Shown: positions 1 to 64,000 of the stretch, piece after piece
Position numbering within the stretch: position 1 is the stretch's first letter
How the letters are laid out: each line of letters opens with the position of its first letter
DNA from: Psammoneis japonica
Taxonomy: Eukaryota
Direction of reading: 5' to 3'
DNA length: 64,000 nt
Assembly (NCBI GenBank): GCA_008632985.1
Contig: QPGO01000069.1
Span: 310,001-374,000, forward strand
Notes under the pieces: generated by a model
What the model saw: only the letters and a program-made list of their open reading frames with translations
Databases searched by the model: none
Told to the model about the DNA's origin: nothing
Made by a program: the position numbers and the translations under genes

Positions 1-3000
1 CTGAAGTGTTCCATGCTGACATGCTGATGCTTTTAGGAGACTGGGGAAGAGAGCTGCAAATGTCCCACACAGCATTGACATGTGGTGGACAAAAATGCTC
101 TCCTCCACAACCTGTCTGTCATGCTCTTGACTCATGCATCCAATTGCAGCAGTGCACTGTGGCTCTCTGGCATTGCCAAAGGCACCCCAAGAGAGCAAAA
201 CAATGTTTTTTTTTCATTTTTTCACAGAGCTGCTGGGCTTGTTGAAATGACTTTCCAAAAGATGCCAGCACACAACATCCAGGGTGGATCTTGTTGCGCC
301 TTTCTTGGCAATGTTGTTGCTGGGGTGATTGTGGTTGAACAAAAATGCATCATCTGACTGCCAGTGAAGACCTTGAACTTGCTTGATCCAGTCAGAAACA
401 AAACCAAATGCAGACAAAACTGTGGGATCCTCAACCAAGCACATGATGCCAATGCCAACACCATTGTGAGAATGTTTCCATCTGGTGCATTGACTCAAAT
501 TTTTTTTTTTCATCATCCTTGTGCATGCCCAGCAATTGATGCTTGGTGAAACCAGAGGAGGAAGAAGACTTGGACACAGAAAAGGCATGACAACCATCCA
601 ACTCTGTCAGATCATCAGCAGGTGTTTGGCTGGCTTTCCTGGAAAGAGCCCGGAAATCCAGATGATCAAGGATGGAATGACCAACATTGACAACATGGAA
701 GCAATGATTGCCGTGGTCACTGTTGGTGAATGGACTTCAAAACTCAAGGCATTGCCAGTGTGATGGAAAGTGGCAATGGACTTTTCCATGTTCTTGGAGC
801 AAGCCATCATGCAGCAACAATGCCTCCCGTCAATGCAAGTGGATGCCCAGCCAATGTCAAGATCAGGCAGCACCAAGTGAGTGCAAATGACATGCTGCAC
901 TGCTGCTCTTGACTTGCCTTCCCCACATTGCACAATTCTGGTGCACTCTTCCAGAAGGCATCTTTGGGTTGCTTGCAGACCATGCCAACATTCTCAAGTC
1001 CTCTCCATTTGCTGGGCAATGATTTGGGGACAGAAGCAGAAGTCTTGGTGGAGACAAGAGAAGGAGCTGTTGCAGAAGATTGAGGCAGACTTTTTTGGAC
1101 TGGTGACCACTTGTTGGCCAAGGCCACTCGTGGGGACAGAGATGGCAGCAGAAATGTCAGAAGCACACCACACAGATGAAATGACATGCACAGGAAGCAG
1201 AGCTTGACTTGGAGCCAACAGAACAGTGAAAGGGAGTGACAAAGACATTGTCAGACCAGATGTGGCATTGAAAAATGAGGGTGGCACATTGAACAATTGA
1301 GCTGGAATGGCAGGAGAGGATGCACCCCCCACAGTGCAAGACATCAAGCTCAAATCAATGCAGGAAGAGACACAGTGGGACAAGGCACCAAATGCAAGGT
1401 TCCACCAAGCACACCTTCTCCTGATCTCTGCAAGATCCCAATCCCACAAAGAAGGATCCAGCTGTTGCACCAAAGCAATGTGTGGGTGCACAGTGGGAGC
1501 GGTCATGGACAGAGTTGTTTGAAGGCAACTGAGACAAGCAAACTGCACCGCTGACTGGGCAGGCATGGGATGAACCCTGGCATCATCATCAGAGAGCCAT
1601 TGAACCATCACAGTTAAAAGATGTCTTGTCTTCTCTGTCAAAGAGCTCAAGCCTGCTCTTTTTGCTGAAAAACACTCAAAATCTTTCCTCTGTCTGTCTG
1701 TGGTGTGATGGGTGAGCAAACAACATGGGAAAGTGACAACTCAGTGAGCTGGCCATGAGCAAGGCAAGGCAGATGGTGGCAAGTTCACTTTTGCTCCATT
1801 GTGGCTTCAACAGTTGACTTGCCAAGAAGAGAAAGGTCTGGGAGCACCAAAAGAGAAAATGCAAACTCAATCAAGAATGTGCAGTGCAGGCAAGCAAGGA
1901 AAAAGCTGTGAGGGCCCAGAAGACAACCTCCATTTCCAATGTCAATTTCTCATTGACAATCAGCAATGCCAATTTCTCAAGTGTTGAAAAACTTGAGGAG
2001 GGTCATTCTCTCAGTTTTGATGATGGTGTGAGTCCAGATGTGCTGTTTGCAGTCAAAGTGCCCACCTGCTTGATGGATTGATCCTGTTCTCACAGAAGCA
2101 CAAGCAACCATCAATGCCTGATGCCAACATGGAAAATTGATGCATGACTCCTGGACTTTCTCTCACTTTGGCAACAACAAGAGGGTGACAAGAGTTGTGC
2201 TCCATTTGTTGACATCCCCAGGAGGGAAGGGTTGTCTGAAACTTTGCAGTGCAGCAGAGAGGAAGTTGTTGGCAACACCCAACACAACATGTTTGGAGCT
2301 GAGCAACCTCAGCTCATGACATTCTGGTGTTTGACCGCATGGGACATGGAGCATTGTTCCAGACACAAAAACCCAGCTTTGCTTGATCATGCCCAGCCAG
2401 CATCCTTCACACAGTGGGGGAGCAACCAAGAGCAAGGTGTCTCAGCAATCAGCATTGAGTCAGGTGACAAATGTGGAATCACGTGCTTTGCAGTCAAGGC
2501 CACACATCTCAAAAACAAGGAATGGGCAGCTTTTGACACCCAAGGGCTGGACACAAAAAGTGCACAAATTTCCCCCCAGTGGCGGCACAAGCTTCCCAGG
2601 TGAACAAAGACTGCCACCTGGCAAAGGTGGAGTGAGTGTTGTTTTTGAGGAGGTCAACAATTTGGAGAGAATTGTTCCTTTTCAATGCCATGGGAGCCAA
2701 AGCAGCAGCCAGAGCTGGTGCTGCTCTCACAGTTGATCAAGCATGGAATTGGAAAACCCGCCAATGAGCAATTTGGGAGAACAGTCACAGAAGGAGGTGG
2801 GCAGCTGTCAGGAGTGGAGAAGGATGGAGGGATCACATGACAGAGTGCACAGGGCATTGTTGGCAGATTGGTTGGGGGAAGAGGAGTCTGTGCAGAGGGC
2901 AGAAAGAAACCAAAGAGCATGAGCAGAGAGATGACATGAGATGTTGCAGCTCAATGTTTGGGGGTTGCCCACAGAGGGGGAGAAGAGGAGTGGCACATGC

Positions 3001-5300
3001 TGCCAACAAAGTGATCGCTGGTGAGGTGGTTCCAGGTGGAGTCACTGGAAGGAAGAAGGGAAGTGGGGAAGGTGTGGGCATGTGAAGAACAGCAGACAGA
3101 GTGGCAGGCATTGGAGCAATGGAGAGCACAGGCAGACTGCCAGGGAGGCTTGGGTTGAGAGTGAGTGGCGGGAAATGAAGAGCTCAAAAAAAAGTGGTGG
3201 AAGAAGATCCCCTTTTGTCAAGCAGAGATTGGGGTTCAGTGCAAAAGAGAGTCACATGGAGGTTGGGTGGTGGGAGAGGGTGGGAGGTGCACAGCAGAGG
3301 GGTGTGGAGGTGAAAAAAGAGGGCCCAAGGCACACACACAGACAGAAGTCTCAAGGAGCCTGATGACAATGAACCTCTCCCAGCAGGAGAATCATCTTTG
3401 TGGACTGGCAATGAACATTCGATGTCAAAGGTTGACTGAATGACACATGACAAAAGCATTTGGTGACTTTTGCTGAGGCATGACCTGCAAACATCTGGAC
3501 CAAGTTGAGCTGGGGACACCAAGAGTTGAACTGAGTGCAGGCTCTTCCAACTCTGTTCATTGCACCTGAAGCAACTGGCATGCCTGCATTGTGTGGCTCC
3601 ATGCATTTAGGGGTGGATTTTGTCACGCTCTTGGCCAGCATGCTTCTTTGTCATGTCTGTCTTTGGCAGCAGCATGTGGACAGTGCTGTGGCATTCACTC
3701 CACTGGCAACACATGCGGCATTGCATGACGCTGTCGGGCACCATTGGATGCCAAGGTGTGTCGTTTGCTCAAGGACACTCTCCTGAATGATTGCAAAGCA
3801 ACAGTTGCCCAGTCTTTGAGATGCTCCAGGAGAAAGAACCCAAGGATGCTTTTGGCCAATGGCAAGCATGACACAGACAAACTCATCATGGCGCAGCCTG
3901 GTGACTTGATCCACTTTCATCAATTGGAGATGATTTGGAACGTGCCACTGGTTTGCTCAGTTCCAAACTCAATCAGTCGGAAATGGTCCATTTTCAAGAA
4001 CTGACTCATGATGGACAGGCCAGGTGTCATTTGGATGAAGCCTCTGCTCTGTCAACAGTTGTGATCATTGGCGACAACCAGATGTGCCAAGGACAAGGAC
4101 CTGTTTTGCCAAAAGGCTGCATTGACGAACCAGTTCCACACATTTGTTCTAGATGCCACAGAATGTTTTCCTCAGTTCATTGCCACAGAGAGGAGCTGCT
4201 GTCCTTCCTGGTGCACAAACAAAGCCATTCAGTGATGCCAACACTTGCCTCATTGTTTCCATTCTTCCACAGTTCATTCTCCGCATCCGAAGTGAGCAAG
4301 GGTTTGGTTCATTGACTGCCGCACAGGTGTTGAGCAAATGCAGAGCAGTCATTTTGCATTGAAGAACCAATCATGCCTGGCACACATTTTGTTCCAGAAA
4401 ACATGAGTCGCAGGGCAGGACCCACTGTCACTTGAACCTTGGCACTTCAAAAAGACTGGCTGCCACATCATTTCAAGTTGGGTTGTCAAACCAGGGTGTG
4501 GAGTGCATTTCCATGTTGACAAAAAGAAGATGAAAAGCAACGTCAGCAAACAAATCTCAAATGAAAAGAAAAATGGACATGAAATTGACTTGCATTGGGG
4601 GTTCATTTGAATGCAACGTAGCACAATGAATGCACTCTATGGCATTGTGAAATGCACAACAAATTCATGCAATGAATCTCTTGCCACCCAAAACGGGTGT
4701 CATGTGGGTGTGACAAGGGATTCAAAGAGTTCTTGGAGCAGTCACGCCAGTTGGAATGGGAGGAGCGTCACCATCATAAATGTCTCAAAACATCATTTGG
4801 TCTGGTCTCCATCTGACACGACCGCTGCCAAACAGTTTTCATTTCAAGAGCAGCAGCCATGGGGATGTAAACTGCAAGGGAGCACAGATGGCAGCAATTG
4901 ATCTCTCTGATGGGCTTGTTGTTTTGGGATTAGATGCCTTGGATGAGCATGAAGGAGAAGTTCAGATTTGGTCTTTGAGGGCACGACATCCGATGCGCCA
5001 ATGGCACGGACACGTTCTTCCACAATGACTTTCTTCTTCACTTGTCTCTCAAACACTCCAAAAGCATCAAATTTCCAAGGTCACTGCACCCGTCATTGCA
5101 ATGTCATTGCCAATCTTGATCATTGACACTCTTTCATGAGCTGCATGCATTGAGTTGTGATGGAGCTTTGTCGGTGTCCATGGGGAAAGCTCAGTTTTTG
5201 ATGACTCTGTTTCAGTGCGAGTGAAGTTTGATCTCAGCACGACAACTCAATGAGCAAGAGGGAAGCAGGCTGAATGACACAAATGTCCAAATGTTTGAAT
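1..5300. mobile_element. Heavily degenerated repeat/TE-like domain depleted of both TpA and CpG; family not recognisable
   Basis: Only on the order of ten TA dinucleotides seen by eye in ~5.2 kb, few CG, strong TG/CA excess; many short overlapping Cys/His/Trp/Gln-rich ORFs with no recognisable domain. Confidence 0.55.
3348..3700 (+). repeat. Diverged copy of segment ~9202-9655 (3' end of F-box-like gene plus downstream flank)
   Basis: gtctcaaggagcctgatgacaatgaacct...gttgactgaatgacac matches gtctcaaggagcctgacgaaaatgaaccc...gtcgactgaatgacac; ctttggcagcagcatgtggacagtgct matches ctttggcaacggcgtgtggacagtgct. Confidence 0.85.
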
Positions 5301-5554
5301 GTTGTTGTGCTGCTGGCAAACTCAACCAGTCCCGCTGCCTCAACCGGTCCCGCCGGCTAACTGACGGATGGCTGCTTGCTTGATTTAAATTCCGAGCGCC
5401 GCTGCTCGCCGCCGCATCAACCCCACAGCGCAATGACAACGCAAGATGCTGGCAGTTTGTTCTTCCCAATGAACAAGCAATGCAATCACACTGCCAAAGA
5501 AAACCACAACACTGAGAGTTGCACCATCACACCTCCAAAGAATGACAAAATGCC

Positions 5555-6400
5555 ATGAGTCATTTTAATGGATTGTCAAGCATTTCGTCGTCGACAGAAA
5601 ATGCCGAAAACGCTGCTGCGAGCAGAAGGTCACAAATGGACAATGCACTCGATTGTTTCCTTGATGCTTCCACAGTTGCTTTGCAGATGCAAGACCAGGA
5701 CAATGCATTGAAAAATGTTAAAAACACTTTGCCAAAAGGGAGTAAAGTGACCAAGCGGAAATTGAAGGAAGCCAACGACCAGCTGGCGTTGGTGCAAAAC
5801 AGCATCTCCATTTTGCAAGTGGCAACAAAAGGAGCAACTGTGGCAGCTGCTCAAGCTTCTAGGATTCCCAATGTTGGACATGTCCACAACTGCTTGAACA
5901 GCAAAAGTGTGTGCGCAAGAAGCGAGTGGAAGAGCAACCAAGAAAAAACCAGAAGCCGTTTCCATCGCAAGAATCAAGCGCCGCACCGGCAGGTCAAAAA
6001 CCTGTGCCGGCAAAATCGGAATCCCTCATTGCATTGGAGGACATGTGCAAAGAAAATCAGCAGCTGCAACCAGAGACTCGTGCCCAAAACAAAAGACCTT
6101 GTCTCATGCCGTCATCTCATTTTCATGAAAACTTCCGAATGCCAACAAAAAAGGAAACAGGATTGTGCGGAAAATTTAAATTTGTCGACATGGTCCTGGC
6201 CATTCCCACATCAAAGCGCGCCAAAGTCATTGATTTTGCAATGGAAAACTCGATGATTCCATTGAGCAGCCGACGAGGGGCCAACAGGATCATCCAAAAG
6301 CGATCGAACGGCGCAGCCATGCACTCGGAGTGGGGCGCTTGTCCCGCAACTTCACGGTTTTTGGTTTGCCCCGTGCCATGCGCGGCCTTCACACGTCACG
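5555..6400 (+). pseudogene. Frameshifted, TA-depleted coding relic of unknown (possibly TE) protein
   Basis: Overlapping ORFs 5555-6256 and 5911-6423 read as protein-like (coiled-coil then KFKFVDMVLAIP...EWG), with no Tyr residues. Confidence 0.3.
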
Positions 6401-7550
6401 CGTCTCGCGCCACACCGCAATGACGACACACGACACTCTCATCACTCCAACTTGAAACTGCGCCGCGGCTCATCACTGGCCAGTTGTGCGCTGCCGGTGC
6501 CGGCAGACCCACATGAGGTGCTCCTCGCCGTCGATCATGACATTCTCCTGCCTCAGCATGCGGCAGTGTTGAAGGCAGAAAGAACAAAATTGAAAGGCAG
6601 AAAAGAAAAGGACCGACATGAGCATGCTGACGGCTCATTTGAAAAAGCGCAAGGCAGATGAGGAAGTGAGGGATCAGAAGATTCCTTCATTCAAAGCCTC
6701 AAAGAAACGTCTCAACGACGACACATCTGGAAGCAACGAAACGGAAACAGGTGACATCAGCTTGTTTCTGTCATCGCTTTCTATCGTCGCTGACAACGGC
6801 TGGCTTTCTGCGCAGCATCTTTGTCGCCTGGAATCGACCTCAAAAGCAACACAAGCATGGGTGAAAGACGATCACTGGAAAGTGGTTTGTTGCCTGCGTT
6901 GGCCCAACACGGCTGTTTTTTCCAAAGAGCATGTCCGTGATTTTGGAGGCTACAGAATGTGGTTCCGTCACAGGGCCGCCTCGTTGGTGCGGGAGAACGT
7001 GGATGCTAGACCACTCCCGCCTCCTACGATCGATGTAGAGCAAGTCAGGTTTCTAGTTGACATTTCGGTTTGCGGGAAATCGGTTTGTTCAAAATCTGTT
7101 ATGTTGAGCCCTGAAGGATGGAGACTTTGGTCTGAAAGCGGAGGTTTCGGGTTTCATTTAGAATCTCCTTTTATTGTCGGAGAAGCCCGCTGTTGGCGTG
7201 AGGGTGTGGACGGGCGTCGTTGCAATCATGGATGCAAATTCAATCCTCGTCAATGTGATGCTCGGATCCACCTCATGCGCTGTAAGGAAGAGTGGTCACC
7301 ACCTTTTTGCGTCTGTCAATCGGGAAGGAAGAATTGGATTCGTGCATTCTCAGCTGACAGTGTTGGTGAACCTCAAGACGGCATGTACGATTGGAAGAAC
7401 TCGTCAAAAGAATGGCTTGAATGTGACTCTGATGATCCTGCTTCCCATGACCATCATGGATGTCTGATGATGAGTGACACGCAAATGTCCAGAAGAGTTC
7501 AGCAACGACTGGGAAGCCCAATGCGTTTTTCGATGTGTCTTGCGCTCAAT

Positions 7551-8306
7551 GGAGTGGCGTGCTTTCAAAAATTCGGTGCGCACACCTGATCTGCACAAAA
7601 CACACGTACGTAAAAATGCACTGCAAAATTCGTAGAGATGTTTGTTTGAATTCACTTCACACACAAACATCACGGCAACGACGCCGCGACATCGGCAATG
7701 GACGCACACAACAACGACAGCGGACTGGGGGGTTGTGATGCACCGAGACAACAACTGATGTGATGAGAAATGAGGTGTCAATGTCAAATGACAATGATCG
7801 AGTTGTTTTGGGAGCTGGTTGAGCCATTGGTGACGAAGGGTTTTTGGCACGTACAACTTGGTGCTGAAATCACGCAGAGGTTTTGGCCGCGGTGGGACTG
7901 TTGTTTTTCACTTTTTTTGGGGTGCATTTTGTGTTTTCTCGGTCGATCGCATTGATGAAGCACTGAAGTGAGCACGCGACAACAGATTTTGACGAAAAGT
8001 TGGATTTTCATTCATTGTGGAGGATCAGCACGGGGTTTTTAACACGGTGAAGCACGGGGGGACGATTTTTTCACCAGATTTGCAAGATCCTGCATCCCAT
8101 CCAATTCGCGTGCGCAATGTCAGTGGATTGATGTATTTTTCATACGCAAGAAGCGCAATGACGTCGACATGCCCGACATGACAGACTTCCCGTGCTGTTG
8201 TCGTAATGAAGTGAAATCTTGTTGTGTTCGGTGCGCAGAGTCTAGTGCTGTTTGTCCGCATGCAGACGAGTGCTGCGCACCGCACTTTTGGAAAGTGCGC
8301 CACTCC
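7551..8306. mobile_element. MITE-like non-autonomous DNA transposon, copy 1 (~756 bp)
   Basis: ~33-bp imperfect terminal inverted repeats GGAGTGGCGT(G/A)CTTTC...CGGTGCGCA; flanked by AT on both sides; no credible ORF. Confidence 0.85.
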
Positions 8307-8308
8307 AT

Positions 8309-9063
8309 GGAGTGGCGTACTTTCAAAAATTCGGTGCGCACACCTGACCCACACAAAATGTGCGCACGTAAAAATGTCCTACAAAATTCGTAGAGATGTT
8401 CATTTGAATTCACTTCACACACAAACATCACGGCAACGACGCCGCGACATCGGCAATGGATGCACACAACAACGACAGCGGACTGGGAGGTTATGATGCA
8501 CCGAGACAACAACTGATGTGACAAGAAATGAGACATCAATGTCAAATGACAATGATCGAGTTGTTTTGGGAGCTGGTTGAGCCATTGGTGACGAAGGGTT
8601 TTTGGCACGTACAACTTGGCACTGAAATCACGTAGAGGTTTTGGCCGCGGTGGGACTGTTGTTTTTCACTTTTTTTGGGGTGCTTTTGTGTTTTCTCGGT
8701 CGATCGCATTGATGAAGCACTGGAGTGAGCACGCGACAACAGATTTTGACGAAAAGTTGGATTTTCATTCATTGTGGAGGATTGGCACGGGGTTTTTAAC
8801 ACGGTGAAGCACGGGGGGACGATTTTTTCACCAGATTTGCAAGATCCTGTATCCCATCCAATTCGCATGCGTAACATTAGTGGATTGATGTATTTTTTAT
8901 ATGCAAGAAGCGCAATAACGTCGATGTACCCGACATGATAGACTTCCCGTGCTGTTGTCATAATGAAGTGAAATCTTGTTGTGTTCGGTGCGTAGAGTCT
9001 AGCACTGTTTGTCCGCATGTAGACGAGTGCTGCGCACCGCACTTTTGGAAAGTACGCCACTCC
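8309..9063. mobile_element. MITE-like element, copy 2, head-to-tail with copy 1
   Basis: Colinear with 7551-8306; termini GGAGTGGCGTACTTTC / GAAAGTACGCCACTCC are perfect inverted repeats; AT at 8307-8308 and 9064-9065. Confidence 0.85.
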
Positions 9064-9945
9064 ATGTGATTGAGCCGGGGGACAAGATTGCAGTTGCTGG
9101 TTTTGAAATCAACCTCTTTTGTGTCAATGACGGCAACTGGTTGGATTTTGACTCTGAGGCTGCAGAGGAGAAGGGCGTCTCTGTGTTGCATGTCATGGAG
9201 AGTCTCAAGGAGCCTGACGAAAATGAACCCCCCCCAGCCGGGGAATCATCGTTGTGGACGGACGAAGAGCATTCGATGTCGAAGGTCGACTGAATGACAC
9301 ACATGGCAGAAGTCTCTGGTGACTTTTGCTGAAGCAATTCGAGTGGTTTCGGCAAAACTTGCGCGTTGCCAACTTTGTGTGACAGCGTTGGAACGAAATC
9401 ACATTCAAAGGCGAACCGCATCTCGGCGGCCCAGTGTGCACCTACAGTGTGACCTTGAAATCTCTGGAGCGACTTGAACTAGGGATGCCGAGAGCTAAAC
9501 TAAATGGGGACTTTTCTGTTCATTTCACACGAAGCAACTGGTGCATGCCCACATTGCACGGCTCTGTGCATTTAGCGGCGGCTCTCGCCACGCTCTTGCA
9601 GCACGCTTCTTAGTCATGTCTTTGGCAACGGCGTGTGGACAGTGCTACAGTACTCTTCCTCTCAAAAGCTTTCGTGGGCTGCTACTCTCGCTCCGTTTAG
9701 TCCCTCGCTATTAGCCCAACGGCCTCGAAGTTTCTTGTCAGTAGTGACTGTCAAATCTTTGCCGTGCTGGTGACTACTAGAGTAGACCGGAGAACTGGAA
9801 CTAGCGTGGCGGCAAAAGAGATTTGGTCGTGACTCCCATCTTGGGGAAAATCAGATAATTTTACTTCTACTACACAGAGCTGAACTAATGTTGCTTCTTC
9901 TATTCTTACAACTCGAAGCAAGTTGTACAACTCCTCCTCTACGCC

Positions 9946-11127
9946 TTACATGCCTCCCGCCATCATCTGCTGCAGCATGGCAGGGTTCATTCCTCCTCCC
10001 ATGCCACCCATACCACTCATCATGCCTTCAATCATGTTGAGCATACTCGGAGGCGGCTGAATGTTGAAGTATGACTTTCCAATCTTGGTCGTGTACGTTT
10101 CGACAATCTGCGGCTTGTACATGACGTGGAGTTCCTTCTTGAAGGACCGAAGGAGCCACGAATAGAGAGGACCCGTCTTGGTATCCTTTTCACACACCCT
10201 CAAGAGCATGCAACCAAAGACAACGTGAGACGGGGACTTGCCATCGTCCTTTTTCATGTACGACTTGGTAAGATCGTCCATGGGTCGGTCTTCGACCTTT
10301 TCAATAAAGCCCCTTAGCAAAATGTTGGCGTCACGCAAATTCTCCACGGCGCAAAACAACAAGAGACTGCGAGTCAAGAGTGCATCACGATCCGCCGGGG
10401 GACACGTGTGTCCCATTTCCAATTCCTGATCCGTGGGCTTGGGAAGCGACTCGAGCCACGACAAGATCTGATCTGGCTTTTCGGCCAACACCATGTTTGT
10501 CACGGCATCACACTGCAGTGCATCACACGACTGTCCGTCCTCCTCATCGTCTACCATGTCATCGGCACCCTCTTCTTCTTCTTGTGCAAGCAGGGACAAC
10601 TTCCAGCATTGGTGTCCCATGAGTTCCAACAAGCGTTGATCTCCGAGTCGGATCTTTCCCAAATCGGCAGACCATTGAATGGCTCTTCGGAGAAAATCCC
10701 GTTCAAGTCGTTCCAATCGATTCCGTTCCGCCTTGGACGCAATGTCCGATTCATCCAGAGCTGTTTGTTGCGCCTGATGCAATTCGACAAGACGTCCAAT
10801 CCATTCGTCCGTCGCTTCTGTATGAGTCTCTCGCAACGCCTCCACCAAACACGTCAAGAGCTGAGATGCGACGGACACGCGATGATTCTTGAGAATGGTC
10901 AAACTGCCCTGGTAGGCCAAGTCGGTAGCACCGGCGTAATCTCCAGCCTTGACGCGTTTGCGAACCTGAGACTGAGCGAGCTGCAACGCTTCGTATGCAG
11001 TGGCTTCGTCCTTGAGATTCTCGCCCTCGAGCAATTCCTTTAGACGAAGGGATACCGCATCCTGACTGTTTTCGTTCTTTTTGCGAGCTTCCAACTGCTT
11101 ACGACGACGAGCTGCGGCGGCACTCAT
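9946..11127 (-). CDS. GET4: Golgi-to-ER traffic protein 4 (Get4/TRC35) homolog
   Basis: YEALQL..., FLRRAIQWS...GDQRLLELMG, ..TKIGKSYFNIQPP.. with Met/Gly-rich tail; start chosen at MSAAAARRRK. Confidence 0.75.
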   Translation of the reverse strand: MSAAAARRRKQLEARKKNENSQDAVSLRLKELLEGENLKDEATAYEALQLAQSQVRKRVKAGDYAGATDLAYQGSLTILKNHRVSVASQLLTCLVEALRETHTEATDEWIGRLVELHQAQQTALDESDIASKAERNRLERLERDFLRRAIQWSADLGKIRLGDQRLLELMGHQCWKLSLLAQEEEEGADDMVDDEEDGQSCDALQCDAVTNMVLAEKPDQILSWLESLPKPTDQELEMGHTCPPADRDALLTRSLLLFCAVENLRDANILLRGFIEKVEDRPMDDLTKSYMKKDDGKSPSHVVFGCMLLRVCEKDTKTGPLYSWLLRSFKKELHVMYKPQIVETYTTKIGKSYFNIQPPPSMLNMIEGMMSGMGGMGGGMNPAMLQQMMAGGM

Positions 11128-11536
11128 TACTATTATATTTACAGCGAGGTTGCTGGATACAAGCAACAACAAACACAACAGCAACAACACGGAGATGGGA
11201 GAGTGTGATGAAAAAAAGATGTGCGGTGCGGTGTGCGCCGACGCGACACGTGGGAAGGATCGACCTAGTATGTGCTCACGTAGAATTGTACGCAGTCATT
11301 CGATTATCCGAAAGACAGACACGCTTCACCGGCACGCATGCAAAGGATAAGCGCACCCTAAACACAGATAAGAAGGCGTTCATGCAAAGAATGTGCTTAT
11401 CAGTCATAGGCGGAAAACGAAACTTCGACAGTCATCTCGCTCGCTCGTTGGCTTCACAAATCACAAATTGTTGTTGTTGTTGCTCTTGTGTATTGTTGCT
11501 GTATTGTGTTTCATGTTGTCGTTGTTCTTGTCCAAG

Positions 11537-13059
11537 ATGAAGACACCCAGTGTGTTCAAAAAGAGCTTGGGAGCTTTGGCCTTTTTGATTTTGTTTCTTC
11601 CGCTGCACAAGTTTTTTTCATGGTTGCCTTTCATCAAACGACTTCTGCTGCCGCCGACCAACAACAAACAGCCCTGTCGTCCATGCTGGAGCAAAGCAAA
11701 ACAACAACAACTATACACGACGTTACAACAAGAAAGATGGAACCTTTAATGGATTGTATCTCATGTATAGAGAGCCACTCCCCACGTCTCATGCACACTG
11801 TGTGGGAGAAAACTATCGAGAACATTCTTGGATTGGGCGGTCTTGTGACTTTCGATACTTGTGTTTCGATACGAGCAACACGAGTTTGTTTTGTTTCGAT
11901 CCGAAATTGAAGCCAAGCTCACAAAGCCTTGGGAGCGACCAATCATAACTTTACGGATGTTCCACACAATATCGAATGATTCTCACGTTTCGATAGGAGG
12001 CATCAATTTGAAATGGAACAAGAGGGATATGACCGACTCAAGTGGTTTCCCAAGATTGTGGATGTTGAAAGCATGACGGAACAAACGGGCTTTTATGAAT
12101 TGCCATCGGATGTGGTTTGGATTCCGATTCATTCGCTTGCCGGATACAATCCCGGTCATTTAGTTTGGGACGACCTTTTGCCGACCTATACGTTGCTGTC
12201 CATGTTTATGCACTTGGACGACAAGAAGCGTCCACTCTTGATGCGAATGGTTCTAAGAGACCCCCTCTGGGCTTCATGTGACTTTGAACCAAAAAAGAAG
12301 CTCTGTCAAACCATGATTCGAAAGTTTATTCCAATGATGGGTATGGATCCGACTTCGTTTAGTACCTTTCATGACTTTGCATTCAACACCACCAACGGTG
12401 AACCACCCAAATCAAAGTATGTTTGTGCTCGACACGGAGCAGCCGGTATTGGAATGTTGACTGATCACGGAACCAAGTTGCATGGATGGAGTCATGAGGA
12501 TTATGAAACGACACACAATCACGGACGAGCTGCAAATTTTTATCAATTTCGAAACTTTTGTTTACAGAATTTGGGCATACCCGTCAAGCCAGCCAATGCC
12601 AAACCGCCATTTAAGGTTACCTTTTCCGTGAGTTCATCGGCACGTGCCGTTGGAATATACGGTAATTTGGATCATCAAATTGACGCTGTCGAAAAGGCCT
12701 TTCGTGGTGAGGAGGTGATTGTACAAAAGTACAAAATGAGTGACCTTTCGTTAAAAGAGCAAGTACAGATTGCAGCCGACTCGAACATATTCATCACCAT
12801 GGCGGGAGGGGGTGCGGTCACTGCGTTTTTCCTTCCCAAGGGGTCGTCTTTGATTTTGTATTATGATGAGATGGGTGGGGTTCACAGAGGTAGACCAAAC
12901 AAGCGTCCCGCCAGATTGGACTGGGACATTTTCAACAATGCGGCACACATTTCAGCCCATTGGCTCCCGCTTCGAACATTCAAGAAAGACGAGGATGTTG
13001 AGGCCTTGGTTCAGCTGATACGATATGAACTCGACAGCATAAAGGCACTGTCCCAATGA
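11537..13059 (+). CDS. Putative glycosyltransferase (GT61/DUF563-like), type II membrane; frameshifts in 5' part
   Basis: N-terminal TM, HCVGENY...RSCDFRYLCFD, NPGHLVWDD, SLKEQVQIAADSNIFITMAGGGAVTAFFLPKGS. Confidence 0.7.
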
Positions 13060-13499
13060 TGTAGATGACTCTGAGAAGAATTGAGGTATAGAGGACTAGT
13101 CTCAATCCTGCGTACCGGTAGTTTCATCTCCGATTCAATCCATACCTAATACTACTCTTCTCTGCTATACTTACTCCTAGTAGTAGCTAATAGGGGCCCT
13201 CCTAACAGTTGCTCTCTACTCTCTAGCTCTAGAGCTAGAGTGAGGAGTCGTCCCCGCCCGCCCCTCGCTCGCCCGCCCTATCCCGCCCGCGCGCCCTTCA
13301 AGCATGGTCGGTGTCCGTCCGTCCATCCATGTTCAATGTTATGTTCATCGTCGTCATTCGTCCTTGGCCATGGCGATATGGCGAGGAAAGCGTTGACGCA
13401 AGCGGTGGTACTATATGAGCAGAGACTGTGACTCATTGAATTGTCGCTTCTGTTTATTTCAATGACACAGCATAGATGCAAATAAAGCTCTCTTACGCC

Positions 13500-15089
13500 A
13501 TGGTTGGAATACGAAACGGTATGTTCTGAAGCAAGTGTGCGCAGAAGGGATCTTGATCTCGGCGCTTCTAACTGTCGATTACGTTGTTTCTTTCTGATCA
13601 GGAATCGTCTTTGGTCTCTTGGCGGTATTGGGGCTAGTGATTGCTATTGGAGAGCTTTTTTACCTTCATTCTCAGTATTCGTTTCACGATGAATTACACC
13701 ATCCGCCGCCGCTCGTGGAGAAGAGCGAGAATCATCAATCAGTTCCAATCATCGCGGCTGAGAATGCACCAAAAGACGGGACTTTTAACGGTTTGAATAT
13801 AGCATACAGGAAGGGAAACATCACTTCTAGTGTACACTGTGTTGGGGAAAATTACCAAGCAGACTCATGGATGTATCGATCCTGTGACTTTCGAAATCTG
13901 TGCTTTGACACTGAGCAACACGAGTTTGTCTTGTTTCGCTCCTCCAAAGAGTCGGCCTTGTACGAGGCCCTGAACAAAACCCAACATGAATACATAGATA
14001 TCTCCACCACATCACATACCAACGTTTCTCTTGGTGGCATTAATCCAAAGTGGGTAAACGAATGGGATCGAATGAAATGGTTTCCACAAATGATCGAGAC
14101 GGACGAATTGGAGAATGTGGGCTACTATGAATTGCCTTTGAGTACGGTTTGGATTCCCTTCCATTCTCTTGCCGGCTTCAATCCCGGACATTTGGTGTGG
14201 GACGACTTTTTACCGATATTTACACTGCTTTCCATGTTTTCGCACGTTCAAGACAAGAGACAACCCTTGATGATGCGCAAGGTTATGCGACCCTATCTTT
14301 GGGCAACATGCGACAACAAGGAAAGCAATACGATAACATGCCGCGCCATGTTTCGAAAATTTTTACCCATTATGGGTATCAATCCCGACTCGTTTAGCAC
14401 CTTTGACGATTTCATGTTCAACACAACGGATGACGACTCGGCTCCACGATCAAAATATGTTTGTGCTCGACACGGTGTCGCCGGAATCGGAATGCTGACG
14501 ATCACGGAACCAAGTTGCATGGATGGAGTGCCGAGGATTATAAAACTACCCATAATCATGGACGAGGTGCCATCTTGTACCAATTTCGAAACTTTGTGCT
14601 GACCAACTTGGGTATTCCAATCAAGCCGGTGATTGCAGAACCTCCCTTCAAGATTACCTTTTCCATTAGCTCGTCGGCTCGCCCAAATCGCAACGTTGAC
14701 ATGAAGACTCAAATGGATGCAGTCCGAAACGCATTCCCTAATGATACTGTTATTGTGCAGGCCTTTAAAATGAGCGATCTTTCCTGGCAGAACAGGTCAA
14801 AATTGCAGCCGAGTCAACCGTTTACGTGACGGTTTGTGGCGGTGGTGCAGTGACGGGGATATTTCTTCCACGGGGATCAAGTTTGATTGTGTTTTACGAT
14901 GAAAAAGGTAGCTTGGAGGGCAACAGAAAAACTGGACTTCCTGCACGGCTCGACTGGGATGTTCTCAACAATGCTGCGTATCTCCGAACGCATTGGTTTC
15001 CCACTAGAAGCATGTCTACTCAAAATGACATTGACGCTCTTGTGGAGCTGATACGTTACGAAATCGATCTGATGCGATTAAATCAATGA
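13500..15089 (+). CDS. Tandem paralog of GT61-like glycosyltransferase; probable intron ~13519-13601; frameshifts near 14500 and 14790
   Basis: Same motifs as 11537-13059 (HCVGENY, NPGHLVWDD, DHGTKLHGW, ARLDWD) spread over three ORFs. Confidence 0.7.
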
Positions 15090-61384: not shown

Positions 61385-61979
61385 GTGGTGCTGGCGTCGA
61401 GTTCATTCCGTCAAGGCTGATTTGTCGCAAGGCACCGTGCACAAATTGTGAGAATGGAGCATCAGCATCACGGATTTTTGTGATGCATTTATGTATCTTT
61501 GGTGTTGTTTCTCACTTCTTGTCATTTATTCGATGTTTGTGCTGCAAGGTTCTGTGGTGATTGGCTCTGTTCCGCTGACTTGCTCTTCGGAACTTGTCGT
61601 TGAACAATCGAACTGCGTTTCAAGTGGAACTGATGATCAAGAGTTGGCGGCGGTGATGTCTCAACGTCCCTTTGGCCGATTTTCGCGGTTCTTGTTTCAT
61701 TCTCAACGGCAATTGTACAAGGAATCCGACAGGCTTGGCTTTGTTGTGCAAAATTTCATTCCATGGAGATGGATTTGTTGAATGTCGATCGGCACCCAAG
61801 GCTGCTTCAATTGGAAGGGACGCTCCCGCAATGTTTTGGATTGAAAAAGGAATGCCGCAATGAAGCCCTGGACATGTTCACATGCAACATGAACATTGAA
61901 TGTGGCATGTGCACACAAACAAACATGAACTGACACGGAATGCAATCGCCGTCTGACCCCTTCATTCTTTCTGCTGCCG

Positions 61980-63938
61980 CTAAACCTGCAGCAATGGACT
62001 CAGACTGTTGTTGCGCTTGTCGTGTTTCAATGCATTGACAATCTGAGTCACTGGTTTTGATGCACCACAAACCTGACACACACGATCACAAGCCACCTGG
62101 GCACTCAATCCAGCTCGGACAAGCCCAGCCACCACGTCCCATGGAACCTTCCTTCTGCGGCACTTGTGCTTGACTCGACCGCGCTCTTCTCTGGTGAAGT
62201 CTTGTGCTGCTTTCCTTCCACCAATTCCATTCTCATGCTTTTGCCACAGAATGTGAATGGTCCTTGGATTTGGGCCAAGGGTGCTCTCATGCGGGACGTG
62301 GTTTGGATTGTTGTTGTTTGCACCTTGCTGAGGCGGGACGTTTCCTGCAGCTTGTTGGTTGCCTTCCTGGTTTCGCGCAACTCCAAATGCAGGCTGGGAA
62401 GCAAGGCGTCGCACATTGCATTCTACATTTGCAAGTCGACGCTCCAGCTGTGCATGATGATCATCAGAGCAGGCTTTGAGCTCCTCCATGACGCGACGCA
62501 ATGATCTCACCTCGGAGTGCATCGCAAGCAATGGATTTCGATCGACAAGCCCACGGCCGGCTGCGACGCCCCCATTCTGAGCGCCATTCCCCCCATCATC
62601 AACATCCACCACTTCATTGAAATGCACCTCAGCATCTTCACCAGTCACCACCATCAATGCTTTTTTAATTGGATTCTCGCCGACCGGCAGTTGATGAACT
62701 CCATTGCATGCTTGGAGAATGCGTTCTCTTAGATGTTGCGGAAGGTGCCAGCTTTCTTCTGAGAAAGCAAACCACAGCAGTGCTTTCCCAAGCACCAAAG
62801 CAATCTCAGCACCAAATTTGTTGTTTGTTGCTGGCGCCACATGCTCCAATAAAAAATCATTTGAAACTGGCCTCCAACACAGAGTGCTGAGGCAACCTTG
62901 GCATCCGGCCACGGCAACTCTACGTCATCATACAAATCCGACATGCGCTTGGACATTTTCCAACGGCCACGACAGTCCTTCTCATCTTTTTGGCACCCAT
63001 TGTTGCGGGCACGCGTTGAGCCATACTTTCTGTCACTGTGTGAGCCAACCAGTCCTTTGGTGCTTCCTGTTGCAGCAACAAATTCTGGATGAATGTACAC
63101 TTCGTTTGTGAGTGTCTTGGTGACTGCATCCTTCACCTTTTCTCCTCCTTCTGGCACACGAAGGTCATTGGTTAATCCAAAAATGCAAGGTGCACGTTCT
63201 GCGGCACCTCCTACACTGTGGAACACTTCCAGCCAAATTGCCAAGCCAAGCAAAGAACAAAACTGTGGGTCCAGCATTGCCCCAAAGAGAATTTGGTTTG
63301 GGGCATCTCTTCTTCCAGACAGTTCTTTGACCAATTTGGCCTTGCCCGCAGGGTGAAGTCATTGGCTGGATGGGGGGTGAAATTGTCATTAAGAAACTGC
63401 GTGCAATCATCGATTCGACCAATCATGTGAACCTGAAACCGGGACAAGCTTGGCATGAGATGCTTCCGCAGCATGGATTGGTCTGGTTTTCCTCGAGCAT
63501 TTTGATTTGAGCCCGGTGCTCCTCATCTTTCAATGGTCGTCTCTTTTTTGACGGTGCGCCTCTGTTCCGAGTTTCCTCTTTCTTGACCTTTTTGATGAGT
63601 TTGTTTGCATCGGTTGATCATGTCGGGTTGCCTTGGTTCGATTGAACATTCCACGGCATCAACCGGTTTGGCACGCAGCTGGAAATCGCCTTCTTCCAGC
63701 ATTCCAACAAACTTGACCTTGCTTGCTTGGGCAAGTCTTCTTTGCCTGGTTCGGGCGTTCCACACGCCTTTAGATTCATCCACCGCTTGACATCATCGGG
63801 GGTCATTTGAAGCAGCCTCTGGTTGGTGAACTCTTGCTCACATTGACAAGTCACCCCATCAAGAAATGACATGAGTGCCATCAAGGTTGGCTTGCAATCA
63901 TTTTTAGATGGCATGGTCTCCATTGCATTGTTGCACAA
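61980..63938 (-). mobile_element. Degenerate Crypton-like (CryptonS-type) tyrosine-recombinase transposon with C-terminal GCR1_C-like domain
   Basis: GSHSDRKYGSTRAR..GC.KDEKDCRGRWK...YDDVELPWPDAKVA (HxxR, W, catalytic Y); N-terminal WKKAISS...GNPT; C-terminal LWQKHENGIGGRKAAQDFTREERG..RRKVPWD; several frameshifts. Confidence 0.75.
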
Positions 63939-64000
63939 ATCGATCAGAAACGCGATGTTCCATGCAACAAATCGGTTGTTTCAATGCGGAAAAATTTCCC

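Follow-up and report, generated by a model that had tools for sequence, protein, structure and literature searches.

Repeat-induced point mutation (RIP) of fungi is triggered by sequence duplication and consists of C>T transitions, mainly CpA>TpA; it takes place in the premeiotic sexual phase and depends on a RID/DNMT4 methyltransferase-like protein. A different kind of directed mutation has recently been described from the chlorarachniophyte Bigelowiella natans (B. natans), in which 231 of 302 de novo mutations fell in two viral insertions, where all except a single one were A>G or T>C and every such change lay at TpA (Mettrop et al., 10.64898/2026.01.13.699255). According to the accessible part of this preprint, which nowhere uses the words diatom, CpG, flank or spread, the de novo rate is ~6e-7 per site per generation, only some of the mutation-accumulation lines were active, and ADAT2 was proposed, not shown, as the agent. 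In a model diatom, loss of DNMT5 removes methylation and frees young transposons, and RID-related DNMT4 genes occur in diatoms (PMC9998398, accessible sections). No diatom report of TpA hypermutation was found in the literature searched, which lay mostly outside subscription journals. Here we describe a locus of the diatom Psammoneis japonica at which TpA is lost in a similar way. The window, that is, the whole stretch of 64,000 nucleotides that was analysed, comprises contig positions 310001–374000 (contig QPGO01000069.1, G000:C63) in the 91-Mb assembly GCA_008632985.1; all positions below are those of the window unless a contig is named, and the background is window 11131–61100.

The left part of the window is best read, with a probability of roughly 70%, as the margin of a silenced domain rich in transposons, where a fast TpA clock and a slow CpG clock run together and are targeted by place. 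The slow clock would be ordinary deamination of methylated CpG. The fast clock converts A:T to G:C at TpA only, on either strand and at one base per dinucleotide, favouring A before a pyrimidine by ~2:1, with a per-site rate 10–16 times that of CpG decay; its spectrum, its direction, its action on both strands, its dependence on position and the ratio of the two rates are shown by the data below. Targets would be set by place and not by sequence family, comprising anything inside the domain or within a few hundred bases of it, so that a young miniature inverted-repeat transposable element (MITE) and a single-copy host gene broken by MITEs would be hit, and identical MITEs in gene-rich DNA spared. 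Old core DNA has lost both dinucleotides, and later entrants to the domain TpA only.

The dinucleotide profile of the window is graded. The core of the old eroded block (1–3600), which begins ~7 kb upstream of the window, contains 2 TA against 230 expected (observed/expected ratio, o/e, 0.01) and 14 CG against 212 (o/e 0.07), and the 7 kb upstream (G000:C63:303001–310000) have a TA o/e of 0.00–0.07. Further right CG comes back well before TA, with o/e values for CG and TA of 0.33 and 0.06 in 3601–5300, 0.72 and 0.12 in 5301–6200, and 0.96 and 0.14 in 6201–7550; in the segments of 5301–8310 as a whole TA stays at 0.12–0.18, with CG at 0.83–1.14 beyond the 5301–6200 step. The drop in TpA is paired with an increase in CpA and TpG, and the GC content is steady at 0.46–0.52. 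A preliminary description of this DNA, made from the letters alone, had reported both dinucleotides missing from 1 to 5.3 kb, of which 1–3600 has lost both and 3601–5300 has CG at 0.33; its second zone, rich in CG and poor in TA from 5.3 to 9.65 kb, stands (TA 0.20 and CG 0.95, against 0.60 and 0.98 in the background), the lowest TA o/e of any 4.3-kb background window being 0.51 (Poisson p ~1e-23). The CpG edge, which it had placed at ~5.3 kb, is a staircase, with change points at ~3625, 5325 and 6250. The sharp return of TA claimed after 9645 is visible in the counts, with 6 TA in the 579 bp of 9067–9645 (o/e 0.18) and 20 in the 300 bp of 9646–9945 (o/e 0.95; Fisher p 7e-6), but the TA gradient is stepped too, 9645 is not among its best three change points (4600, 6950/8125 and 8825), and the right end of the second of two MITEs in this zone (8801–9000) already reaches 0.70, the element as a whole having 0.40. 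The stretch 9646–9945 is TA-rich even for the background, only 6% of 166 background windows of 300 bp reaching 0.95, and in the GET4 coding DNA that follows TA is back down to 0.33. Over 154 kb of the contig, 54 of 304 windows of 500 bp are poor in both TA and CG, 18 are poor in TA with normal CG and none is poor in CG with normal TA, so that the nesting of CpG loss within TpA loss is general on this contig; the eroded blocks lie over repeats, and the genes between them have normal TA.

It might be asked whether any special process is needed, since TpA is scarce everywhere here (0.60) and the boundaries lie at repeat ends, the step at 5.3 kb at the left end of a repeat and that at 9.65 kb at the end of a duplicated segment. 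A compositional artefact, GC-biased gene conversion or an assembly join would have to account for a spectrum which, between copies of one sequence, is context-specific and directional, for an unchanged GC content and for boundaries that are bridged by reads, and we give such an explanation next to no credence. No N occurs at the edges, and short-read contigs from run X1 span 5053–5447 (1 other letter) and 9037–11341 (0 other letters, 7 gaps), on which grounds an assembly join at the boundaries was rejected; these reads are probably from the same sample as the assembly and do not represent independent biology. A further read contig, over 6040–7650, differs from the assembly at 7 positions, of which 2 are TpA and 4 CpG transitions, 15 TA and 97 CG being present there; the two TpA differences are only a hint of recent activity of the process.

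The direction of change can be read from a MITE family of 761 bp with ends GGAG...CTCC, terminal inverted repeats and an AT target duplication, two members of which lie in tandem in the window. Among 61 matches listed, 30 loci were fetched and, after exclusion of partial and diverged ones, 23 near-full-length copies were aligned. Eight of them are pristine, with 41–42 of 42 TA sites intact and 0–7 bases off their consensus. The other 15 carry 538 substitutions. Of these, 392 are A>G after T (TpA>TpG or CpA, on both strands) and 52 are A>G elsewhere, 73 are transitions at CpG and 9 are C>T outside it, and 12 are transversions. Of the 444 A>G changes, 392 thus come after T, at a rate of 392/1260 after T against 52/4545 in other contexts. 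Within TpA, an A before C or T was changed twice as often as one before A or G (0.36–0.37 against 0.18–0.19; at mixed sites, 94 against 44), and no change at all was seen in TTAA (0/30). The TA sites of the eroded copies have become CA in 207 cases, TG in 175 and CG in 4, where 60–66 CG would be expected if the two bases were independent, which indicates that the first hit destroys the target; 34 of the 42 sites show both products, and TA is for this reason taken as the ancestral hub. CpG cells changed in the eroded copies amount to 72/720, and some copies have 15–33 TA changes with 0 of 47–48 CpG changed. Deamination of 5-methylcytosine (5mC) cannot give TpA>TpG or CpA, which supports TA loss as a process distinct from CpG decay, in agreement with the preliminary description. 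A weak A>G signal was also seen at ApT (~0.02–0.03 per site; alignment positions 228 and 563–564), often beside a changed TpA and partly of shared ancestry.

This spectrum bears on the possibility that TpA loss is a by-product of CpG repair, in which a Y-family polymerase (eta- or iota-like), filling patches in an error-prone manner while T:G mismatches of methylated DNA are repaired, would put G opposite T close to the lesion, and the loss would spread by the length of the patch. Five Y-family genes are present in the genome, one with a Pol eta/Rev1 helix-hairpin-helix motif and the others presumably of the eta, iota and kappa types, and TA loss always accompanies CG loss. Human Pol eta has a WA hotspot, with TA strongest, and makes A>G at both TA and AA; here A>G after A amounts to 12/2055 against 392/1260 after T, which is far stricter than that signature. 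With transversions at 12 of 538 and same-strand clusters absent, we regard a polymerase origin as improbable. At locus L134, an open reading frame (ORF; 1–699) resembling endonuclease III (HhH-GPD) by eye lies directly upstream of a Pol kappa-like gene (1075–3152) on the same strand.

Erosion goes with position and with neither age nor copy number. Age was not supported as the cause of the differences between MITE copies, neutral substitutions being alike in eroded (0–5) and pristine (0–6) ones. Where the two flanks of a copy differ in TA, erosion differs in step between its two ends (rho 0.89, p 2e-5, n=14; L008 was left out as a duplicate of the L006 flanks). In the eight one-sided MITEs, TA loss per 150-bp bin from the TA-poor flank is 0.76, 0.72, 0.71, 0.33 and 0.21, and CG loss is 0.07, 0.12, 0.05, 0.02 and 0.01; erosion thus enters from the TA-poor flank and fades past ~450 bp. 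Near and far parts differ by 133/180 against 40/156 for TA and by 18/225 against 2/155 for CG, and in four of these elements TA loss falls from 15–18/26 to 0–1/16. Both losses fall with distance by similar factors and hence share one spatial domain, and the wider spread of TA erosion that had been proposed is mostly apparent; its earlier action is supported, the hazards near the block being 1.34 for TA and 0.083 for CG and the best CG/TA hazard ratio over the 15 copies 0.10. The nesting mostly comes down to two clocks, one fast and one slow, that share a domain and are superimposed on a mosaic of insertions, and the transitions, TpA-specific, two-stranded and non-clustered, occur in the domains and their margins only. 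The chromatin-domain edge of the preliminary description would fit this position effect. As regards the assembly, two locus pairs on different contigs (L006/L008 and L074/L075) share flanks or a gene, which suggests haplotigs or segmental duplicates; L006 and L008 carry the same MITE insertion with different TA changes.

The same evidence can be set against a homology-triggered "reverse RIP", in which linked repeats, by pairing, would set off TpA changes in themselves and in the intervening DNA, with a RID-like DNMT4 protein perhaps defining the target. The eroded zone stops where a direct duplication (3347–3687 and 9201–9660) stops, the tandem MITE pair is eroded, and duplicated methyltransferase genes are TA-less; several DNMT1-clade methyltransferases are present, one beside a chromodomain ORF, and the diatom DNMT4, related to RID, has no known function in the accessible sections of PMC9998398. 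However, among 23 near-identical copies of 761 bp there are 8 that have stayed untouched, erosion can be one-sided inside a copy of which both halves are equally repeated, and the target described for B. natans is single-copy (10.64898/2026.01.13.699255, in part). Moreover, we know of no chemistry by which a C5-methyltransferase would produce T>C or A>G. This mechanism is, in our view, unlikely.

The methyltransferase copies in question (L083, L084, L085 and L089, on G000:C301 and C297) lie in TA-less DNA with TA o/e of 0.07–0.11 and CG of 0.66–0.74, and have His or Cys where the intact paralogues have Tyr, with stops in some; by comparison of these sequences, gene duplicates appear to be eroded in the same way as transposons. 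In total, 27 C5-methyltransferase matches were found in the genome, and at least three intact DNMT1-clade genes (L079, L080 and L086, on G000:C10, C59 and C34) are possibly DNMT4/RID-like, one of them with an upstream chromodomain ORF.

A single-copy host gene has been drawn into the eroded domain. Its 5' part (6621–7550, + strand), TA-eroded with CpG kept and without a second genomic copy, and its 3' part (9066–9293, + strand), whose codons lack TA, are in frame and belong to one gene, the same relatives matching both in order; the 3' part matches the C-terminal part of relatives, e.g., P0241 282–348 (E 3e-11). They are separated by the tandem MITE pair, which has one AT duplication common to both elements: copy 1 (7551–8306) shows 33/42 TA and 0/48 CG changed with 0 neutral substitutions, and copy 2 (8309–9063) 18/40 TA and 3/48 CG changed, its TA loss being 0.59 in the left part and 0.30 in the right. 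A profile-free full scan gave 35 relatives of the host-gene ORF, and a shared-word homologue search none. The ORF has 2 Tyr in 310 codons, compared with 1.9–4.6% Tyr in six neighbouring ORFs, and has Cys at two columns where 7/14 and 6/14 relatives have Tyr, Tyr being kept at two. The partial TA recovery noted earlier inside it is confirmed, with 7 TA in the 200 bp of 7001–7200; selection was rejected as the cause of the residual TA, 9 of the 11 remaining TA lying outside Tyr codons. Although it was labelled F-box earlier, a Pfam scan gave no F-box match in the ORF itself; F-box-like matches occur in 4 of 14 relatives scanned, one over the cut-off and lying outside the aligned stretch, and the gene is of a diatom-type family whose N-terminus is weakly F-box-like in relatives.

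Beyond the gene lie its TA-poor 3' flank (9294–9645), whose homology to the 3347–3687 copy stops at ~9660, and the TA-normal intergenic stretch 9646–9945, the outer edge of the eroded domain, which is bridged by a read contig. Next comes GET4 (9946–11127, – strand), intact (PF04190, E 3.9e-39) and with named homologues from diatoms. Erosion of the GET4 protein was rejected: no Tyr>His or Cys change is found at columns conserved across 60 homologues, the conserved tyrosines being kept. Synonymous TA of GET4 is at the low end compared with its neighbours (NTA 4/81; T|A junction 0.38 against 0.40–0.70). The MITE-disrupted single-copy gene is engulfed by the eroded domain, and GET4 is spared. To the right of GET4, 11980–15089 holds two similar genes in tandem, the second spread over three frames by frameshifts, introns or sequencing error.

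The zone from 5300 to 9645 is a mosaic of insertions, and the same spectrum recurs against uneroded copies in three families beyond the MITE, namely two repeats of the eroded zones and a Crypton-like element. The dispersed repeat at 5308–6354, with the CpG step of 5.3 kb at its left end, has in 5308–5704, compared with the uneroded copy L036, 15/17 TA changed to CA or TG and 13/31 CG to TG or CA. An eroded member of a dispersed multi-copy family, of which uneroded copies exist too, lies at 3703–4893 and has in 3990–4672 changed 38/43 TA and 29/39 CG in the same manner compared with copy L042. Between it and the core, 3347–3687 (+ strand) is an older, CG-decayed partial copy of 9201–9660 (the 3' end of the host gene with its 3' flank) with ~110 bp deleted. 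In the core, 621–1391 resembles another eroded locus at 75%, and the Pfam scan of the ORFs tried in the core and upstream blocks gave no match.

At the other end of the window, a second TA-poor block with CG partly kept (61385–64000, – strand; TA 0.11, CG 0.69) holds an element with GCR1_C (PF12550) which we take to be Crypton-like, a tyrosine-recombinase domain having been found, as a weak match, in a relative. Compared with the young copy L095, 69/90 TA have become CA or TG and 31/125 CG have become TG or CA. In L097, an eroded copy, 9 of 14 conserved Tyr are His or Cys, against a maximum of 3/14 in any of 120 listed outside homologues; since these keep Tyr where L097 has His or Cys, the direction is fixed as loss of TpA. 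No Tyr erosion was seen among the best 120 of 167 homologues, and in other organisms 7 of 7 metagenome loci reached through the same protein have normal TA (0.70–0.83); as intact copies are favoured by such a probe, it is evidence for neither the presence nor the absence of the process. The young copies L094–L096 retain ORFs of 673–677 aa and differ over their first 2500 columns by 27 TA-type, 5 CG-type and 5 other changes, which amounts to erosion under way.

As for the agent, the domain would be heterochromatin marked by 5mC and histone marks, as inferred from the features above, and if the main reading is correct there is about an even chance that the chemistry is that of a host deaminase of the TadA/ADAT2 or ADAT1/ADAR type acting distributively on the adenines of DNA (A>inosine, read as G), an option that the strict 5' T and the B. 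natans precedent lead us to rank first. To our knowledge, a natural DNA adenine deaminase has long been thought absent, and TadA has a preference for the TA context, a point for which no confirming passage was found. Candidates in the genome are one ADAT2, one TadA-like gene and two genes with the editase domain PF02137 of ADAT1/ADAR, the usual number for ADAT1 being one. The ADAT2 gene (L077) has HxE-PCxxC and Asn at the TadA D108 position; this Asn, to which an enabling role has been ascribed, is a general feature of eukaryotic ADAT2 (PMC10354150, accessible part). The editase genes are L118 (G000:C40:112.7–113.4 kb) and L120 (G000:C79:344.5–345.4 kb), with no double-stranded RNA-binding domain seen in the frames scanned; L120 merits attention as a candidate. 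It is alternatively conceivable that a base mark at TpA in silenced chromatin, N6-methyladenine or oxidised thymine, is mutagenic or mis-repaired as 5mC is at CpG. The changes are dispersed, uncoordinated between strands and limited to one per dinucleotide, the spatial gradient is the same as that of CpG decay, and a lesion of A and one of T cannot be separated in these data because TpA is self-complementary. On the other side, a Tet_JBP search was without match, the control likewise matching nothing anywhere, and N6_N4_Mtase was not matched (control matched in 10/14) in a search that did not extend to MT-A70. A mark of this type is, we believe, quite unlikely.

Several observations weigh against an origin by place and deamination. 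Same-strand clustering of changes was absent (196/367 neighbours, permutation 190 ± 8.5), unlike what is expected of a processive single-strand deaminase. Amphioxus ADAT2, the one natural form whose editing of DNA has been measured, favours GAA and TCG instead of TA (PMC10354150, in part), and ADAR prefers UAG (PMC10661471, in part), while here TAY is hit more than TAR. The pristine MITEs L011, L013 and L015 have 0–1 TA changes at 150–300 bp or less from fully eroded blocks, so that proximity is not sufficient. The 9.65-kb edge is the end of a local duplication, as a homology-triggered process would also predict, and owing to shared MITE ancestry some of the changed cells may not be independent events. 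Finally, TA and CG loss, described earlier as uncoupled, co-vary over the copies (rho 0.74), yet a fixed CG/TA ratio is rejected (chi2 53, df 14); the two clocks are therefore not tightly locked, which leaves room for differences in timing or methylation.

With the silenced-domain reading, a diatom is added to the one rhizarian alga in which the process has so far been measured; in the diatom it has reached saturation, and alignments of copies make it legible. Ready test sites are available in the MITE family, being of the same sequence and age, eroded or spared by location and with edges mapped to ~150 bp; they open the way to direct tests of what sets the target, chromatin domain or homology, and of which agent acts. 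There are consequences for annotation as well. TAA and TAG fall from 8.5 and 9.9 per kb in the background to 0.7 each in the core, and their loss gives rise to long false ORFs rich in His and Cys, many of which are found in all six frames of 1–5300; likewise, transposon ages estimated from divergence would be inflated. More broadly, one may entertain, though tentatively and as something that is doubtful at present, that a chromatin-guided defence of the genome is common to diatoms and chlorarachniophytes, by which a natural adenine deaminase of DNA, recruited to silenced domains, would edit TpA on both strands, spread a few nucleosomes past the edge and finish off transposon-broken genes, as a eukaryotic A-to-G counterpart of RIP and APOBEC restriction with position, not homology, as its guide.

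Among known systems, fungal RIP resembles the process at this locus in its dinucleotide-specific transitions in repeat-rich DNA, which leak into neighbouring genes and damage gene duplicates. Its polarity is opposite, however: here TpA is lost, not made, non-CpG C>T amounts to only 9/538, GC content is not lowered, TAA and TAG stops are removed, and unlinked near-identical copies are spared, eight of them at ~99% identity with 0–1 TA changes. The DNMT5-type 5mC decay of diatom transposons (PMC9998398, accessible sections) accounts for the CG>TG or CA part and probably marks the same domain, but it cannot change A:T pairs and proceeds here at about a tenth of the TpA rate. The kind of process is already known, having been recently described from B. 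natans, and according to the accessible part of that preprint (10.64898/2026.01.13.699255) the two have in common A>G and T>C at TpA on both strands, a regional distribution, the ability to hit single-copy DNA and the presence of ADAT2 as a candidate, transposon domains being enriched in B. natans among TpA-poor genes. They differ in that the depletion in B. natans, a rhizarian with insertions of nucleocytoplasmic large DNA viruses (NCLDV) as well as of virophages, is mild (rho 0.45 in the NCLDV region) and the changes were measured as de novo mutations, those in the set being all at TpA, while in this diatom the loss is near-saturating (o/e 0.01), is read from copy alignments and is less absolute, 392/444 A>G following T with a weak ApT side signal. 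The targets identified here are a MITE, a Crypton-like element, unclassified repeats and a host gene, and the loss is coupled in space with CpG decay and forms a gradient at the domain edges. New at this locus are the position effect, the shared TpA and CpG gradient with its rate ratio, and a broken host gene engulfed beside a spared one.

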